From the IMG/VR virus record IMGVR_UViG_3300021958_000024: a stretch of 64,000 nt of DNA, one strand, 5' to 3'. The DNA comes from a virus. Lineage: Duplodnaviria > Caudoviricetes. Under the pieces are notes generated by a model, which ran no database searches, had not been told where the DNA came from, and worked only from the letters and a program-made list of their open reading frames with translations. Of the stretch, positions 2,427 to 47,674 are shown in pieces. Numbering within the stretch: the first letter of the stretch is position 1; each line of letters begins with the position of its first letter. The position numbers and the translations under genes were made by a program.

Positions 2427-2490
2427 ATGATTCCATTGTTGACGAATGTCAAGGAGTTCAAATCAAATAACAACAAATCAAAATAGGACC

Positions 2491-2519
2491 TTGCCTAGCG
2501 GTCCTTTGGGTGCTATAAT
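2491..2519 (+). promoter_or_regulatory. sigma70-like promoter for the helicase
   Basis: TTGCCT-N17-TATAAT with extended -10 TG; lies inside the ORF-track N-terminus, implying a later start codon. Confidence 0.65.
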
Positions 2520-2544
2520 TCATTCATACGCAACAGAGACTACC

Positions 2545-3774
2545 TTGACCATCTCCCTTCGTCCTCACCAGCAACGTGCTTGCGATGCTATGCTGGCATT
2601 TGACAAGGGTCAAATCATTGTTCCTACTGGTGGAGGCAAGACTCTTGCCATTATTACTGATGTCAAAAATATCTTTGATTCCAACGATGGTGCTAAAACT
2701 ATTGTTGTAGTTGTTGCTCCACGTATTCTACTTGCAGAGCAACTTTGTTCTGAGTTCCTTGAGCATATTGATAATGTTGCTGTGATGCACGTTCACAGCG
2801 GTGATACTAAGCATTTTAGTAGCACCAAACCAAATGCTATTCACAATTGGTCATATCGAGCATACAGTAAGCAACTAATCTTTACCACATATCATTCCCT
2901 GCATCGTATTAAAGAAGCAGGTCTAAATGTTCACACCATTCACTTTGATGAAAGTCACAACTCAGTCCAGAAAAGTTTCTTTCCTGCCACAGAGTATTTC
3001 TCTGCTAATGCTAACCGCTGCTATTTCCACACTGCTACTCCCGTTCATTCTGCGGTTGCTAACAAACCTGGAATGAACGATGGTGAAGTTTATGGGGATG
3101 TAATCTACAAGGTTCCTGCACCTGAACTTGTTAATGGTGGTTTTATTGTTCCTCCACTCGTCAGTGTGAAGCAACTTGACATTGCTTCCTCTAACGTGTT
3201 TGAGAGAGATTGTAAGCACCTTCTAGAGACCATTGAGAGTGAATCTATTCACAAGGGTCTTATTTGTGCAAAGTCTACAAAAATAATCGTTGGTCTTGTT
3301 TCTAACACTAGTTTTGTGGAGGAAATGAAAGAGCGTGATTATTCTGTACTTTACATCACATCTAAGACTGGTGCTGTCATTGATGGCAAGAAAGTGAAGC
3401 GTGATGTATTCTTCAAGACTCTAAATGCTTGGGGTAAGGACAACGACAAAAAGTTTGTTGTCCTTCACCATAGCATCATTTCTGAAGGTATCAATGTCAG
3501 TGGACTAGAAGCAGTTATTTTCATGCGTTCTATGAACTACATTGGTATTCTTCAAAGTGTGGGACGCACATTGCGTCTACATCTTGAAGATGCTCAAGGT
3601 ATGCGAGATGGTACTATTCCTGCTGGACAGTACCATCTTTATCGCAAACCTTTTGGTAAAGTTGTGATTCCTGCCCATGATAAGGTTGGCATCACAACTG
3701 CCAAAAAGATCCAAAACGCACTTGACATTGTATTCCAGCAAGGTGAAGTGTGCGAAACCATTATCAAACGATGA
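2545..3774 (+). CDS. Superfamily 2 (ResIII/DEAD-like) helicase
   Basis: LRPHQ Q-motif, PTGGGKT Walker A, DESH motif II, TAT motif III, QSVGRTLR motif VI; start moved to in-frame TTG at 2545 downstream of the promoter. Confidence 0.85.
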   Translation: MTISLRPHQQRACDAMLAFDKGQIIVPTGGGKTLAIITDVKNIFDSNDGAKTIVVVVAPRILLAEQLCSEFLEHIDNVAVMHVHSGDTKHFSSTKPNAIHNWSYRAYSKQLIFTTYHSLHRIKEAGLNVHTIHFDESHNSVQKSFFPATEYFSANANRCYFHTATPVHSAVANKPGMNDGEVYGDVIYKVPAPELVNGGFIVPPLVSVKQLDIASSNVFERDCKHLLETIESESIHKGLICAKSTKIIVGLVSNTSFVEEMKERDYSVLYITSKTGAVIDGKKVKRDVFFKTLNAWGKDNDKKFVVLHHSIISEGINVSGLEAVIFMRSMNYIGILQSVGRTLRLHLEDAQGMRDGTIPAGQYHLYRKPFGKVVIPAHDKVGITTAKKIQNALDIVFQQGEVCETIIKR

Positions 3775-3805: not shown

Positions 3806-4003
3806 ATGTCAAAGGGATTTACTATAGGAAAATGGGAATATGATACATTATATGCTGCTGTTCCTTTAGCGGGAAGCACATCTAAACTTGTAATAATACA
3901 TCAAGGTCAACAAATAAAGGTGTGTAGAAATGAACAATCTGCACGAAACTTTATTGAAAAGCATAGAAAATCAAAATCAAAGGGTGTTCTGCCAGTTGAT
4001 TAA
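3806..4003 (+). CDS. Hypothetical protein
   Basis: 65-aa ORF in gene-dense + strand run. Confidence 0.65.
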   Translation: MSKGFTIGKWEYDTLYAAVPLAGSTSKLVIIHQGQQIKVCRNEQSARNFIEKHRKSKSKGVLPVD

Positions 4004-4045
4004 CTGTTCACTCATCACCCTGCTGTCGCGGTAGGGTGATATTAT
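3988..4045 (+). promoter_or_regulatory. Early-type promoter: palindromic element + -10 box
   Basis: TCTGCCAGTTGATTAACTGTTCAC (3988-4011), TATTAT (4040), AGGTCAAAG leader. Confidence 0.6.
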
Positions 4046-4074
4046 TAAAAGGTCAAAGCACACAACACAAACAC

Positions 4075-4443
4075 ATGGCAAAAGTCGTCTACAACAACTG
4101 TATTGGTGGTTTTGCACTATCAAACGATGCACTTTATCGCATGGTGCAACTTGGTTCTCCTTACATCAAACCAAATCCTGAGTTTGAAGCAACCAATGAG
4201 TATGGTGATGGAACTACCACCAAATGGTGGGAGGCAAAGTATATTTACGACTGGGATCTTCCTCGTCACGATGAGATTCTAGTGCAAGTAGTTGCTGAAC
4301 TGGGTGATCGTGCCAACGGTCCAGGCGCATCACTTAAACTTGCTGATGTAGTCTCCCAGTATATTATTATGGACACTCGGGGTATGGAGCAAGTTATCCA
4401 ACCCCAAGAGATCCAATGGCAAACCGCAACCAATCGTCTTTGA
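4075..4443 (+). CDS. Hypothetical protein (KVVYNNCIGGFALS...RHDEILVQVV motif)
   Basis: ORF-track frame; start moved to ATG 4075 downstream of promoter. Confidence 0.7.
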   Translation: MAKVVYNNCIGGFALSNDALYRMVQLGSPYIKPNPEFEATNEYGDGTTTKWWEAKYIYDWDLPRHDEILVQVVAELGDRANGPGASLKLADVVSQYIIMDTRGMEQVIQPQEIQWQTATNRL

Positions 4444-4445
4444 TT

Positions 4446-4985
4446 ATGACCTACACATTTAACGGTGGTATTCAAACAGGCACAGTTGCAACTGATGCCC
4501 GTGCTCGCAAACTTGACGAGCAATGTAAGCATGTGAAGAAAACTATTCTTCCTATTATTTCTGCGATCTATCCTGAAGTAACTATGCAGATCAGACTTAC
4601 TAAAGCACAGATTCCTGGCAGTAAAGGTGCTTGCGAACCCGATGGTGGTTTGTGGTTCTACAAAGGCAAACTGATTTCAGTGTTTGAAGGTAAGAAACAG
4701 CAGGATCGAGGTAATGCTATCGAACGCTGGTTCAAAAACAACTATATTTGCCGAAAGATCAATTCTGAGGTGAGTTATGTCACTTTCTGTACTGGTGAAG
4801 GTGCATATGATGATGGTACGATTGGCAAAACCCTGCATGTTGCTCATCTTGCAGGAGTGAATCAGTATAATCCTGGAGATAACTCTGTATTTTACAATAC
4901 AGACTGCTTTACACGAGAGTTTATTTCTGATACAATGCTAGAAGTGCTCTCAGAGCGTATTCAATCGGTAGATCTATCTCAATGA
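4446..4985 (+). CDS. EcoRI-family type II restriction endonuclease
   Basis: PDGG...FEGKKQ catalytic PD-(D/E)xK motif followed by GNAIERWFKN, matching EcoRI PDGG...EAKHQG...GNAIERSHKN; ATGA overlap with the methylase. Confidence 0.75.
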   Translation: MTYTFNGGIQTGTVATDARARKLDEQCKHVKKTILPIISAIYPEVTMQIRLTKAQIPGSKGACEPDGGLWFYKGKLISVFEGKKQQDRGNAIERWFKNNYICRKINSEVSYVTFCTGEGAYDDGTIGKTLHVAHLAGVNQYNPGDNSVFYNTDCFTREFISDTMLEVLSERIQSVDLSQ

Positions 4986-5821
4986 AACCTTTATTCATCT
5001 GGGCAGGTGGTAAAACAAAGGTGCTAAAACATTATGCACCTTTTATGCCATCTGCCCCTTTTTCTACATATTATGAACCATTCTTTGGTGGTGGTGCAAT
5101 GTTTGTCCATGTGATGAACACATATAAACCAAAGAATGTTGTCATCAATGACATCAACGATGATGTGATGAACATCTATCGTTCGATTCGTAATGAATAT
5201 GATGAGTTTATTGATAGAGTCGATAGTTTAGAATCTCAATATCTGCCATTGAGCAAAGAAGATCGCAAGAAGTTTTATTTTGATATTAGACATCTTCATG
5301 CATGGAACTATCAAGAATGGAGCAAACCATTTGAAGCAGCAACACTATATTTTTTGATGAAGACTGGATTCAATGGTATCTATCAACTGAACAAGAATAC
5401 TAATGGAAGGTATGGAACACCTGCTGGATTGCTGAACCAGAAGGATAAGATCTATGATCGCTCTGTGATGCTATGGTGGAAACAAGCACTGCAAAGTGTA
5501 GATATTCGCTCTGGTGATTGGAAAGATGCCGTAACTGATGATCCTGATGGTTTCTTCTTCTTTGATCCACCATATCGTGATAGTTTTGCAGATTATGGCA
5601 ATGGATTTGATGAGCAGGCACTGCTAGACCTTATCGACTTTGCCGATGCACAAAATACAGTTTTTGTTGCTAACCGTGCAGATGATAACTGGTTTGATGA
5701 TAAATCAAAGTCATTAAATGTTCATTACTTTAACATCACATACACTGCTGGTCGTAGGAAGAAAACAGCAACAGGATATGCTGCAAAGCAAGCGCGTGAA
5801 ATCCTACTTTACAAACCTTGA
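4982..5821 (+). CDS. D12-class (Dam-like, alpha group) N6-adenine DNA methyltransferase
   Basis: KPLFIWAGGK, EPFFGGG SAM-binding motif, INDIN, FNGIY, DPPY catalytic motif. Confidence 0.92.
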   Translation: MKPLFIWAGGKTKVLKHYAPFMPSAPFSTYYEPFFGGGAMFVHVMNTYKPKNVVINDINDDVMNIYRSIRNEYDEFIDRVDSLESQYLPLSKEDRKKFYFDIRHLHAWNYQEWSKPFEAATLYFLMKTGFNGIYQLNKNTNGRYGTPAGLLNQKDKIYDRSVMLWWKQALQSVDIRSGDWKDAVTDDPDGFFFFDPPYRDSFADYGNGFDEQALLDLIDFADAQNTVFVANRADDNWFDDKSKSLNVHYFNITYTAGRRKKTATGYAAKQAREILLYKP

Positions 5822-5846
5822 CAGACTCATCCGTCCATACTAATCT
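5818..5846 (+). promoter_or_regulatory. sigma70-like promoter for ORF 5870
   Basis: TTGACA-N17-TAATCT. Confidence 0.5.
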
Positions 5847-5869
5847 ACCTATGTTGTCCACACTACATT

Positions 5870-6391
5870 ATGTTTGACATCAAACAAATCAATCTTGAAG
5901 AGTTTTTCGGTTGTGTAGATGCAACTAACACAACGCAGATGAAGTCTAATACCTTCAAGACCTTTCGTACATGGTTGCAAGAGAAATCATTTGCCAAATG
6001 GAGTAATAATCAACTGAAATATGTTGGTGACTATACTGATGGCACAGATTTTACATCAGATGATGGTACTCGATATGAAATGAAAGGTGCTCTCGGTATG
6101 TTCAACAAGAATGGATCTACCAAGAGCATTGTTCTTAAGAACTTTCAATCTGATAATAAAGTAATCGAAAAGACTTTTGATTACATGCTACTGGTTGATA
6201 CTAAGAACATGTCTATTGCATCAGTTGATTGGGAAACTGTAGAGAAGCGTATCTACTACACTCCCAAATCACCAACAGCAAAAGTAAAGTTTATTCCTGG
6301 TGATTTTACTATTCTAGCAACAGATATTAAACCCGCAAGTAAATCTATCAGTGCAGGTGAGATTCTAGATAAGGTTGAGGTGATTCTGTAA
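5870..6391 (+). CDS. Putative PD-(D/E)xK-type nuclease
   Basis: E (LQEK)...GTDF...RYEMKG arrangement typical of restriction-like nucleases; later FDYMLLVD strand. Confidence 0.5.
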   Translation: MFDIKQINLEEFFGCVDATNTTQMKSNTFKTFRTWLQEKSFAKWSNNQLKYVGDYTDGTDFTSDDGTRYEMKGALGMFNKNGSTKSIVLKNFQSDNKVIEKTFDYMLLVDTKNMSIASVDWETVEKRIYYTPKSPTAKVKFIPGDFTILATDIKPASKSISAGEILDKVEVIL

Positions 6392-6696
6392 TGGCAACTT
6401 GGGAAGGTGAAGCATGGTTAGGATCTGCATCTGGAAGACAAAAAGTTAGAGTTCAGTCTAACACTTTCCATGGTGCAAAAGAGCAAATCGAGCAAATCTA
6501 TGGATCTACAGATGTTTGGAATCTGAGAGAAGTTCGATCATCCTCAAGTTCTAGTTCTTCTGAAGGTGTTTTTTCACTGTTAGTTGTATTATTTGTCATT
6601 GGTTTGATTGTTCAATTTTGGCATATTGCTATGTGGATAATCTTAGGTCTGCTTATTCTTGGGGTTGTTGGTTATATCTTTGGAGATGATGAATAA
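6391..6696 (+). CDS. Small membrane protein
   Basis: Soluble N-terminus, poly-Ser linker, two hydrophobic C-terminal segments; TAATG overlap. Confidence 0.7.
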   Translation: MATWEGEAWLGSASGRQKVRVQSNTFHGAKEQIEQIYGSTDVWNLREVRSSSSSSSSEGVFSLLVVLFVIGLIVQFWHIAMWIILGLLILGVVGYIFGDDE

Positions 6697-6701
6697 TACT
6701 C

Positions 6702-6771
6702 TGTGACAGTCCTAGAAGCGTCCACAAGGCGCTTCCAACCCACCTTCCTGCCTTATACTATAAGAGTCAAC
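6702..6771 (+). promoter_or_regulatory. Early-type promoter: palindromic element + -10 box
   Basis: TGTGACAGTCCTAGAAGCGTCCAC (6702-6725), TATACT (6754), AAGAGTCAA leader. Confidence 0.7.
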
Positions 6772-6786
6772 AACACACCTCTGAGC

Positions 6787-6960
6787 ATGTCTGACGCTTA
6801 CCTGGATGAAGTTCAAGTCGAAGAACTGATGGTCGAGGAAATGATATATGATGATTACGCTCCCACAGAGGAAGATTGGGAGTCTAATCCTTTCTTCGAC
6901 GATGATGCCGATCTCGAAGCATTCTCTCTTGAATGTGCATTTGGTCCTGAAGAGTATTGA
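6787..6960 (+). CDS. Small, extremely acidic protein
   Basis: MSDAYLDEVQVEE...GPEEY; no Lys/Arg; start moved to ATG 6787. Confidence 0.65.
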   Translation: MSDAYLDEVQVEELMVEEMIYDDYAPTEEDWESNPFFDDDADLEAFSLECAFGPEEY

Positions 6961-6962
6961 TT

Positions 6963-7130
6963 ATGCTTTCAGCATTAAACAAACCACGCTCACCATCATT
7001 TTATCACGGACTAATGTTTAAGATCGCAATCACTGTCGGTCTTTTATATTTTTTTTGGGAACCACTGCGTCCCGTTCGCCATGTGACAGCAGACGCACTG
7101 TCCTTCACTGCCGAACAGATCCGCCGATAG
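6963..7130 (+). CDS. Small protein with one hydrophobic segment (55 aa)
   Basis: MLSALNKPRS...MFKIAITVGLLYFFWEPLRPVRHVTADALSFTAEQIRR; read by hand. Confidence 0.55.
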   Translation: MLSALNKPRSPSFYHGLMFKIAITVGLLYFFWEPLRPVRHVTADALSFTAEQIRR

Positions 7131-7140
7131 GGTCTAAACT
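7082..7140 (+). promoter_or_regulatory. Early-type promoter embedded in the end of the preceding ORF
   Basis: TGTGACAGCAGACGCACTGTCCTT (7082-7105), TAAACT (7135). Confidence 0.6.
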
Positions 7141-7169
7141 TACTTCAGTTCACACAACCACACCGAACA

Positions 7170-7346
7170 ATGACCAAGCAACAGTCCCTCCAGTCTGCTC
7201 GCAACGTGATCACTGACAAGCAGGATGCTAACCGCGAAGAACTGAAACGTGCTGCACTTGCAGCAGGTCGTGGTGCTCAAGCAGTCAGCAAAGCAAGCAC
7301 TCTGCGCCTTGCTTTCTGGATTTCTTTTGGTGCTTCTGCTATCTGA
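7170..7346 (+). CDS. Small Ala-rich hypothetical protein (58 aa)
   Basis: MTKQQSLQSARNV...WISFGASAI; followed by small hairpin AGGGCA-TT-TGCCCT. Confidence 0.6.
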   Translation: MTKQQSLQSARNVITDKQDANREELKRAALAAGRGAQAVSKASTLRLAFWISFGASAI

Positions 7347-7392
7347 GTAGGGCATTTGCCCTCTAGTTTCATTCACTTTATTCTTGCAAATC

Positions 7393-7806
7393 ATGGGAAC
7401 TCGCTCACGAATCGGTATCGAACTCTCTGACCAATCCATTCTTTCTGTCTATCATCACTGGAATGGTTATCCTGAATGGTTGGGTCGTATTCTAGAGACA
7501 CACTACAACACCAGAGAACTGGTGGAAGAGTTGATTGATGGTGGTGATATGTCTATCTGTTGGACTGATAAAGTGTGGGGACAACCTCGCACTGATGGAC
7601 AGAAGTATGGTCCTGAGACTTATGCTGCCCGTGGTGAACATTGCCCTCCTCGTTTGGATAAAGATATGGAAGAGTTCTTCTCTATGGGTGAAGAATACTC
7701 TTACATCTTCCGTGATGGTAACTGGTTTGCCTATGATATGCACCAGTTTGATGACACTTTAGCACCAGAACCTGTTGAAATCCCTAGTGGAGCGTTGATG
7801 GTATGA
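7393..7806 (+). CDS. Conserved-type phage hypothetical protein (MGTRSRIG...YHHWNGYP)
   Basis: ORF-track frame, start at ATG 7393. Confidence 0.75.
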   Translation: MGTRSRIGIELSDQSILSVYHHWNGYPEWLGRILETHYNTRELVEELIDGGDMSICWTDKVWGQPRTDGQKYGPETYAARGEHCPPRLDKDMEEFFSMGEEYSYIFRDGNWFAYDMHQFDDTLAPEPVEIPSGALMV

Positions 7807-46351: not shown

Positions 46352-47674
46352 ATGGCACAGTGGAATAAAAATACACAAGACTTTCTCAATCAAGAAAGAA
46401 GTCTATTTGAGGTTAATGGTGTTGCAACCAGAGATGGTAAGATTGTAGATAAATTTAATAGATTTCCAGTTGATGTTCTTCCAGCAAATGCAGATGCTTT
46501 TGGAAGAACAAGAGTATCAAGTCCATTAACTCTTTTTGATTCATCTCACAGATATAAAGATAACAATCTTTGGGATAGTTTGTTAGTAGGCACAGGTTCT
46601 ACAGTTGGTTTCGTAACCACACAAGGTTTAATAAACATAGGTATTGGAACCACTGCTGGTTGTTCTGCAATTAGAGAAACCACAAAAGTATTTTCATATC
46701 AACCAGGAAAGTCATTATTAGTATTGAATACTTTTGTTCCTGCAACACCAAAAGCAAATCTAAGGCAAAGAATTGGATATTTTGGTGCAGATAATGGAAT
46801 GTATTTTGAGATTGATGGAACTACTGCATATTTCGTAGAAAGAAGTTTATCAACTGGAACAGAAACAAGAGTAGCACAGACAGATTGGAATATTGATAAG
46901 TTAGATGGAACTGGCATTTCTGGAATTACTTTAGATATTACTAAAGCACAAATCCTTTGGATGGATATTGAGTGGTTAGGACTTGGTACAGTTAGAATTG
47001 GTTTTGTGATTAACGGTCAGTTTATTCATTGCCATTCATTCCATCACGCAAATATTATTCAATCAACTTATATTACAACAGCATCATTACCTTTGAGATA
47101 TGAGATTAGTAATACTGGAATTACTACAAGTTCAAGCACACTCAAACAGGTTTGTTCTTCTGTGGTTTCAGAAGGTGGTTATGATCTTCGTGGATTACAA
47201 CAGGCAGTACAAACACCAATTACAGCACCAGTAGATTTACCTTCACCAGCAGGAACTTATTATCCAGTACTTTCAATTCGTCTCAAATCTTCTCCAAATA
47301 GATTAGATGCAATTGTTATTTTGACTGCATTATCAATTATGGGAACGGGAAATGGACCATTGTTTAATTGGCAACTGAGAGCATCAGCAACTACATCAGG
47401 TGGAACTTGGGTAAGTTCTGGGGTTGATGGTGCAGTTGAATATAAGATTGATGGTGGAACTGTGAGTGGTGGAAGAATATTAGCATCTGGATTTTTCTCA
47501 TCAACTAATCAATCACAAGCATCAGTAGATATTCTCAAAGAAGCACTCTTTAAGTTCCAGTTAGAACGAAATGGATTAACTGGAACTCCTTATGAATTAA
47601 CACTTGTTTGTTCTACTGATACTTCTGGTGCTAATGTTTTTGCTTCACTGGACTGGGAAGAAATTAGTAGGTAA
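46352..47674 (+). CDS. Beta-rich hypothetical (likely virion-associated) protein
   Basis: 440-aa ORF, DAFGRTRVS...YQPGKS...DIEWLGLG; GAGG RBS. Confidence 0.75.
   Translation: MAQWNKNTQDFLNQERSLFEVNGVATRDGKIVDKFNRFPVDVLPANADAFGRTRVSSPLTLFDSSHRYKDNNLWDSLLVGTGSTVGFVTTQGLINIGIGTTAGCSAIRETTKVFSYQPGKSLLVLNTFVPATPKANLRQRIGYFGADNGMYFEIDGTTAYFVERSLSTGTETRVAQTDWNIDKLDGTGISGITLDITKAQILWMDIEWLGLGTVRIGFVINGQFIHCHSFHHANIIQSTYITTASLPLRYEISNTGITTSSSTLKQVCSSVVSEGGYDLRGLQQAVQTPITAPVDLPSPAGTYYPVLSIRLKSSPNRLDAIVILTALSIMGTGNGPLFNWQLRASATTSGGTWVSSGVDGAVEYKIDGGTVSGGRILASGFFSSTNQSQASVDILKEALFKFQLERNGLTGTPYELTLVCSTDTSGANVFASLDWEEISR

Follow-up and report, generated by a model that had tools for sequence, protein, structure and literature searches.

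A probable AATT-directed restriction-modification cassette, made up of a minimal EcoRI-family nuclease and a Dam-type methylase, in T4-like cyanophages

Does a lytic cyanophage carry a restriction-modification system of its own, and which DNA sequence would such a system recognise? The question is raised by two overlapping genes in a stretch of 64,000 nucleotides (the window) from IMG/VR virus record IMGVR_UViG_3300021958_000024, whose source is a marine T4-like cyanophage (Kyanoviridae). The first gene (4446..4985, + strand) encodes a protein of 179 aa that contains CEPDGG...FEGKKQ...GNAIERWFKN; this length is counted from the ATG at 4446, and an alternative reading from 4416, also open, gives 189 aa. 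The second gene (4982..5821, + strand) encodes a complete Dam-family (D12, alpha-class) N6-adenine DNA methyltransferase of 279 aa. The methylase ATG (4982-4984) lies inside the TGA stop of the nuclease (4983-4985), creating an ATGA overlap (4982..4985, + strand) through which translational coupling of the two genes is plausible. The ORFs, the motifs and the overlap reported in a preliminary description of this DNA were all recovered. Its proposal of a minimal AATT-core cutter with a cognate methylase is supported by the profile and fold of the nuclease, by a Dam-type methylase without the G:C-reading residues, and by the AATT content of carriers versus non-carriers. The pair is probably a phage-borne AATT restriction-modification system, a mobile two-gene Type II cassette of T4-like (Kyanoviridae) cyanophages. 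Homology, residue pattern, gene linkage, presence or absence of the cassette, and AATT statistics are the observations behind this reading; from them we infer the specificities of the enzymes, the position of the cut, the timing and the biological target.

The relationship of the first protein to EcoRI is visible only by family profile and fold, since single-sequence searches with the window nuclease found no match in Pfam, NCBIfam or PDB. The Pfam EcoRI model (PF02963) was not reached at E<=0.1 by the window nuclease, and some close homologues have a precomputed match to it. The protein is a full-length member of phrog_2400, which PHROGs labels 'unknown function'. In an exhaustive HMMER scan the family comprised 239 clusters at 50% identity, mostly of 165-230 aa and almost throughout from viral or metagenomic DNA. 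A search of 185,579 species genomes from cells, made with a 12-row alignment and one narrow pattern, gave a single match, on a 3-kb MAG contig, which is weak evidence that the family may be absent from cells.

Conservation was assessed, and a profile built, from an alignment of 58 diverse family members. In it P65, G89, N90 and R94 are invariant, and conservation is 90% or more at D66, G67, G68, E81, K83, Q85, A91, E93 and N98. Searched against PDB, the profile had EcoRI chains (E=1.2e-10) as its sole matches below E 1, with the PDGG, ExKxQ and GNAIER motifs in register. By this alignment, D66 in P65-D66-G67-G68 (4638..4649, + strand) is the catalytic D91 of EcoRI, and E81-G-K83-K-Q85 (4686..4700, + strand) corresponds to E111-A-K113-H-Q115, which includes the catalytic E and K. 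Likewise, G89-N90-A91-I92-E93-R94 (4710..4727, + strand) corresponds to G140-N141-A142-I143-E144-R145. Between the last two motifs, profile position 84 aligns with EcoRI residue ~117 and position 85 with ~138, so that ~21 EcoRI residues have no counterpart; the nuclease is indeed shorter here, as the preliminary description had it. The missing segment, EcoRI ~118-138, is the inner arm and the start of the extended chain. The residue directly before GNAIER varies within the family (R/A/K/L/G), therefore no conserved reader of an outer base is apparent. In EcoRI itself, the G140-R145 element contacts the inner AT/TA pairs through Asn141, Ala142 and Arg145, and the arms make backbone contacts beyond the recognition site (PMC4081073).

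The predicted structure agrees with the profile. With an AlphaFold (AF2) model of the nuclease (pLDDT 92), EcoRI filled the best five Foldseek matches (E 4e-6), and VIA-align superposed the model on EcoRI at Z 15.7, with 154 of 179 residues aligned at rmsd 2.4 A. The next unrelated fold scored Z 9.3; MunI scored Z 7.9, with 134 residues aligned. A homodimer model reached ipSAE 0.74 against 0.45 for the best control, a mark that 20 of 30 solved homodimers attained, as did 1 of 23 monomers; the two chains meet symmetrically at the GNAIER helix, and both score and interface may echo the model's memory of the solved EcoRI dimer. The EcoRI-family identity first suggested from motifs is thus upheld by the profile, the fold and the conserved catalytic and AATT-reading residues: by alignment and predicted structure, ORF 4446-4985 is an EcoRI-family PD-ExK nuclease. 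A catalytically dead protein, or one acting as a DNA-binding regulator, is highly improbable. Nothing specific speaks for this beyond the small size of the protein, and it is opposed by the conservation of D66, E81 and K83, each at 90% or more in the 58 diverse sequences and all three present in every cyanophage copy.

The second protein matches PF02086 (MethyltransfD12, E 1e-31) and scores 138.5 bits against the Dam family model TIGR00571 (cutoff 114.85). Its FxGxG and DPPY motifs are present, the latter, by motif and alignment, at 5564..5575 (+ strand). Against the EcoDam equivalog model NF008152 it reaches 46.5 bits, where the cutoff is 441. Alignments to EcoDam and DpnM place I6 (4997..4999, + strand) at the position of EcoDam K9, the lysine preceding WAGGK. 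In the recognition hairpin GFNGIYQ (5366..5386, + strand), F, N and I match EcoDam Y119, N120 and L122, and Q135 stands in place of the hairpin arginine R124. An equivalent of P134 is also retained, and the inner A-T contacts are kept. In EcoDam, K9 reads the first G:C pair and R124 discriminates the fourth, C:G, pair, a requirement that the R124A change removes (PMC4417163). Given the two replacements, K9 to I and R124 to Q, and the score far below the NF008152 cutoff, GATC reading is not predicted for this methylase. The preliminary description was correct that it is not an EcoRI-type enzyme: the partner is Dam-type (PF02086, TIGR00571), and it has lost the residues with which GATC enzymes recognise their two G:C pairs.

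The same replacements, written as F[IMVT]W..GK with GFNG[IV][YWF]Q and here called the I/Q pattern, occur in 35 of 35 cassette-linked copies from related loci; the R124 and K9 of a GATC-specific Dam orthologue are found neither in these nor in the window methylase. The pattern extends to a freshwater MAG contig (L170), where an I/Q-type methylase of 50% identity is overlapped by a partner nuclease of 41% identity. Judging from the residues, a switch from GATC to AATT would be expected to call for just this combination of retained inner A-T readers and replaced outer G:C readers. As these outer readers are replaced and the inner contacts retained, the methylase would be a Dam derivative that most likely makes A(m6A)TT, shielding the phage DNA. 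The known AATT methylase M.Tsp509I modifies the inner A of AATT (PMC3287169).

The two genes travel together. In the nearest deposited relatives, Synechococcus phages S-BM1 and S-RIM2 (nuclease 71-72% identical, methylase 79-80%), the nuclease adjoins the methylase, and in IMG/VR the methylase clade lies immediately 3' of the nuclease in about 34 of 38 nuclease loci. At the junction the genes either abut or are separated by an insert of 0.9-1.4 kb; the ORFs inserted there fall into three families unrelated to one another, one of them polymorphic among S-RIM2 isolates. On one contig nuclease and methylase are fused as a single 472-aa ORF, and looking for longer fused forms yielded this one again (~470 aa) and no other. 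Other partners also occur: a 36%-identical nuclease homologue overlaps an unrelated MT-A70 methylase, and in S-CREM2 the nuclease lies near a different Dam-type methylase.

The limits of the cassette are given by relatives that lack it. The pair is tightly packed among genes on the same strand, with an SF2 helicase (2446-3774) and small ORFs (3806-4003 and 4036-4443) on the 5' side and an ORF at 5870-6391 on the 3' side. The relatives with the most similar helicase (L059 and L060, 78% identity) hold no nuclease-methylase pair; in them the homologues of ORFs 4036-4443 and 5870-6391 adjoin, with an unrelated 56-aa ORF between. This empty site indicates that the pair is a discrete cassette of ~1.4 kb, which comparison with L060 places at 4444..5869 (+ strand). 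Two neighbours were considered as cassette members and rejected: ORF 5870-6391, which has no family match, adjoins the flank in cassette-less relatives too and is therefore outside the cassette, and the helicase is a syntenic neighbour in carriers and non-carriers alike. The ATGA overlap, the adjacency in about 34 of 38 loci, the fusion and the empty site show, as for a Type II system, two genes gained and lost together.

The preliminary description had also called this an early-promoter cassette, a claim that finds no support here. A sigma-70 promoter/terminator scan returned 17 sites where 16.4 are expected in shuffles, which is background, and none was convincingly placed 5' of the pair. 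The stretch occurs as assembled contigs in metatranscriptome runs, which attests its presence in RNA libraries without demonstrating that it is transcribed, when, or from which strand.

An indel that always falls at one position between conserved neighbours, and is distributed sporadically, could also be a selfish, addictive or homing-like cassette of little benefit to the phage, in which loss of the methylase is lethal or cutting of co-infecting genomes without the cassette aids its spread. The three unrelated ORF families inserted at the junction fit this, as do decayed copies, namely a frameshifted nuclease in one locus (L037) and a possibly frameshifted methylase in two (L171 and L172). 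These last two are pilon-polished contigs in which the nuclease is intact and the methylase frameshifted, at an AATT observed/expected ratio (O/E) of 0.72. Neighbouring genes are broken up differently in each, and an assembly error is therefore suspected; if the frameshift is real, it contradicts the AATT restriction-modification model. The selfish reading is distinctly unlikely as a full account: carriage is stable across deep helicase clades, and almost every copy has an intact nuclease and an intact methylase. It invokes the same molecular mechanism as a restriction-modification pair and is compatible with it.

If the pair acts on AATT, the genomes that carry it might be expected to show this in their tetranucleotide content. 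Expected counts were taken from a second-order Markov model applied to whole records. The window holds 153 AATT sites where 540 are expected (698 in a zero-order model), an O/E of 0.28, and the controls TTAA (1.00) and ATAT (1.05) are normal, in agreement with the AATT depletion noted for this genome in the preliminary description. The depletion is five- to seven-fold in most window genes; two genes with normal AATT content, 157-2154 (29 sites) and 46352-47674 (13 sites), together hold 42 of the 153. Among pair carriers the ratio ranges from 0.28 to 0.69, with 0.31 in S-RIM2 and 0.62-0.69 in three others (G006, G007 and G008), and S-CREM2, with its different Dam-type partner, is only mildly depleted (0.64), which counts against the AATT model. 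Four non-carriers lie at 0.88-0.98: S-PM2 0.98, Syn9 0.95, the complete genome G009 0.89, and G005, the nearest cassette-less relative, 0.88. Among the 16 palindromes, AATT holds rank 15-16 in these genomes. Equal AATT depletion in relatives that lack the pair, which the preliminary description had named as an outcome against its proposal, is thus not what is seen.

The direction is the same at close range. Within the window's own helicase clade, carriers have ratios of 0.24-0.47 and the non-carriers nested among them 0.70-0.87. Carriage changes about three times on the helicase tree, yielding 2-3 independent pairs, which go in the predicted direction but are too few for statistical power (sign test p 0.5); with so few changes, the locus-level Mann-Whitney p of 5.5e-5 is inflated by relatedness.

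Could the avoidance be imposed from outside, by AATT enzymes of the hosts or other external sources, with the methylase an anti-restriction orphan and the nuclease serving recombination, repair or homing? Site avoidance of external origin probably exists in these phages. CCGG is absent, and GGCC and AGCT are strongly depleted, in carriers and non-carriers; because it is common to both groups, this avoidance is a separate pressure, probably from hosts. Fragments with no detectable nuclease can also be AATT-poor, some at O/E 0.28-0.48, and a whole-record search of these 'non-carrier' fragments found no nuclease in records that are only 8-35% complete. In addition, locus L080 has an orphan I/Q-type methylase with an O/E of 0.41. 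Against an external source stands the comparison of S-RIM2 (0.31) and S-PM2 (0.98), both recorded on the same host, Synechococcus WH7803, as does the value of 0.88 in the window's nearest cassette-less relative. The nuclease keeps the residues with which EcoRI reads AATT; it is coupled to a methylase, with one case of fusion, and has partners from two methylase families that are unrelated. Moreover, an intact nuclease in a phage with no methylase and no AATT is what self-restriction predicts. Host-imposed avoidance is therefore an improbable explanation for the AATT deficit, and an AATT restriction-modification pair carried by the phage is preferred.

This last state is found in three related contigs of 74-112 kb (G002, G003 and G004), each with an intact nuclease. 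Their AATT counts are zero, against 340, 282 and 233 expected, and a search of the whole contigs, which are 41-63% complete, found no methylase homologue. The methylase is thus kept where AATT sites remain, and there are zero sites where it is missing, as self-restriction predicts. The three contigs represent a single lineage (IMG/VR 3300021960_000030 and relatives), which also has zero CCGG, as in non-carriers; host enzymes can therefore purge a tetranucleotide totally.

The same contigs bear on the length of the site. A true restriction-modification pair might recognise a longer or degenerate site containing AATT (e.g. RAATTY), or an unrelated A/T-rich one, to which the AATT avoidance is only partly related. 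This is unlikely, and it draws on the fact that specificity is derived here from homology and k-mer statistics only, on depletion of just 0.6-0.7 in several carriers, and on the shared GNAxER element by which EcoRI relatives read GAATTC, CAATTG and AATT (PMC4081073). It is opposed by the lineage with the nuclease only, in which AATT is purged in all flank contexts (0 of 340 expected), since recognition of 6 bp would purge only a fraction of AATT. In the window, the residual NAATTN contexts show no strong flank bias. The residue before GNAIER is unconserved, and the methylase is without both outer G:C readers.

The bare tetranucleotide AATT is then the most likely target, as GNAIER is kept and the EcoRI segment that precedes it is missing. 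The nuclease would act as a homodimeric, minimal EcoRI-fold enzyme in which the catalytic D/E/K residues remain and the inner AATT is read by GNAIER; by analogy with EcoRI, it would cut 5' of the first A. With the phage DNA shielded by methylation, unmethylated DNA in the infected cell, whether the host chromosome or that of co-infecting phages, would be cut; the role would be offensive and expression may be early. Leaky self-cutting would select against AATT in the genome of the carrier, and in one lineage the methylase would have become absent, protection coming through the complete absence of AATT.

The orphan methylase of L080, with an O/E of 0.41 where its sisters have 0.9, would fit an inter-phage contest. 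A wider proposal, of a graded series of self-protection with a naked restriction enzyme in the zero-AATT lineage and orphan methylases such as that of L080 as a counter-move, is a serious possibility, a little short of an even chance. If true, one end of the series is a methylase guarding a partly AATT-depleted genome, and at the other every AATT is gone from more than 100 kb and the nuclease can be used without modification. There would then be an oceanic restriction arms race between phages, legible in tetranucleotide statistics.

No paper on AATT avoidance or on an AATT restriction-modification pair in cyanophages was found in the literature. The only GenBank record to label a homologue of the nuclease 'restriction endonuclease EcoRI' is that of S-CREM2, and the S-CREM2 paper is silent on the label. 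Restriction-modification is usually viewed as bacterial defence; this is a likely case of a lytic phage wielding restriction as a weapon, and the widespread accessory cassette would serve the virus itself. The pair would offer, in a natural EcoRI-fold enzyme of 179 aa, a model for the change from a 6-bp reader to a 4-bp reader and, in its partner, a natural re-specification of Dam, located precisely where mutagenesis has mapped GATC specificity. It would explain the AATT avoidance, a strong compositional signal from which past gene acquisition by cyanophages could be inferred. Host-DNA breakdown and competitor exclusion could be told apart in culture, where S-RIM2 and S-BM1 grow on Synechococcus WH7803 and S-PM2 offers a natural control.

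Among known systems, viruses that carry both a nuclease and a methylase are found in the chloroviruses and the Marseilleviridae. In the published account, chlorovirus restriction-modification is linked to host DNA degradation and that of marseilleviruses to exclusion of co-infecting viruses (PMC7253447). Unlike the cyanophages, these are giant viruses of eukaryotes with GATC- or CATG-type enzymes, and neither genome-wide avoidance of their own sites nor variants without the methylase were found in the available part of that account (PMC7253447). The bacterial AATT systems MluCI, Tsp509I, TspEI and Sse9I share the site predicted for the phage pair; they are cellular defence systems, whereas the pair lies in lytic phage genomes. 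MluCI has been named with EcoRI and MunI as a possible mosaic relative (PMC4081073).

MunI (C^AATTG; PDB 1D02) is, like the phage nuclease, a small EcoRI relative, with a fold match of Z 7.9 over 134 residues. It reads the inner AATT by a GNAxER-type element and the outer pair via an Arg just before the GNA motif; in the phage family the residue equivalent to that Arg varies. EcoRI (Type IIP, G^AATTC; PDB 1ERI/1CKQ) shares with the phage enzyme the fold, PD...ExK, Q115 and GNAIER, and may share dimer formation through the recognition helices, as the homodimer model suggests. It differs in length (277 aa as opposed to 179 aa, with other insertions besides residues ~118-138 that have no counterpart), in having its own M.EcoRI-type methylase where the phage has a Dam-type one, and in a site of 6 bp where 4 bp is predicted. 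The GATC enzymes EcoDam, T4 Dam and DpnM share with the phage methylase the family, the fold motifs, the hairpin with its intercalating aromatic residue and the equivalents of N120, L122 and P134, and are set apart from it by K9 to I, R124 to Q and its score far below the EcoDam equivalog cutoff. Known families thus supply the parts; what would be new is the minimal nuclease subfamily, the re-specification of Dam, self-inflicted avoidance of the site and a methylase-less state.

The nuclease and methylase genes of the cassette are not always found as an adjacent pair. For example, an I/Q-type methylase (with I and Q at the positions of EcoDam K9 and R124) is present as an orphan in phage contig L080 (12471-13334; 55 % identity), in the syntenic position and without a nuclease; AATT O/E is 0.41 in this phage, against 0.91-0.92 in its closest sisters. 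In S-CREM2 (3995-7781), two genes lie between a nuclease homologue (60 % identity) and a Dam-type methylase of another kind, in which the K9 position is K and the R124 position is Q. A gene with the annotation virion SAM hydrolase lies close to the nuclease homologue, and AATT O/E in the S-CREM2 genome is 0.64.

A single nuclease-methylase fusion was found, in contig L039 (1881-3299), where one 472-aa ORF contains the nuclease (44 % identity) and an I/Q-type methylase (62 % identity) with no stop between them. Copies that may be decayed were also identified. In L171 (10819-11678) and L172 (10819-11669), pilon-polished contigs from separate samples, the methylase is broken by an identical frameshift in the hairpin region. 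Both contigs have an intact nuclease and only mild AATT depletion (0.72). Either the assembly is in error here, or the frameshift is a genuine counter-example. In L037 (1569-2140), the frameshift is in the nuclease, past the GEGAY motif. The insert and the methylase that follow are both intact; the nuclease may be decaying in this phage while the methylase is retained.

The nuclease-methylase junction is the exact insertion point, in different phages, for three unrelated families of ORFs of 300-350 aa, all with no assigned function: phrog_2558, phrog_5778, and phrog_33124 (L001, 4632-5687; L008, 1334-2389; L026, 10806-11825; L005, 4216-5127; L018, 3228-4163; L011, 1522-2562). The phrog_2558 insert has a weak DUF6551/ParB-like match and is polymorphic among S-RIM2 isolates, being present in most and absent from some. 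The junction looks like an insertion hot-spot, or the inserted ORFs like optional third components.

Downstream of the cassette is a 173-aa ORF (window 5870-6391) with no family match. In cassette-less relatives, its homologue directly follows that of ORF 4036-4443; this ORF is therefore a conserved flank, and is ruled out as a partner of the methylase.

Two genes in this AATT-poor window have close to the expected number of sites. The 665-aa ORF at 157-2154 (GC 27 %; 29 AATT sites against approximately 30 expected) had no match in a family search, is present as a 67 %-identical copy in L005, and is probably a recent acquisition. Likewise, the virion structural protein gene (phrog_1645) at 46352-47674 has 13 AATT sites against 14-17 expected, the neighbouring structural genes having 0-3 each, and it looks to have been recently exchanged.

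AATT is not the only 4-mer avoided. CCGG is reduced to 3/27 and GGCC to 2/22 in the window (1-64000). Based on whole records, CCGG is absent or almost absent from S-PM2, Syn9, S-RIM2, and the nuclease-only contigs G002-G004 (0/92, 1/138, 0/144, 0/154). The same marine Synechococcus myoviruses, with or without the cassette, also show strong depletion of GGCC and AGCT. Avoidance of these three 4-mers is probably due to host restriction pressure. Since CCGG is near zero irrespective of the cassette, complete loss of a 4-mer is possible in such phages without a phage-encoded enzyme.
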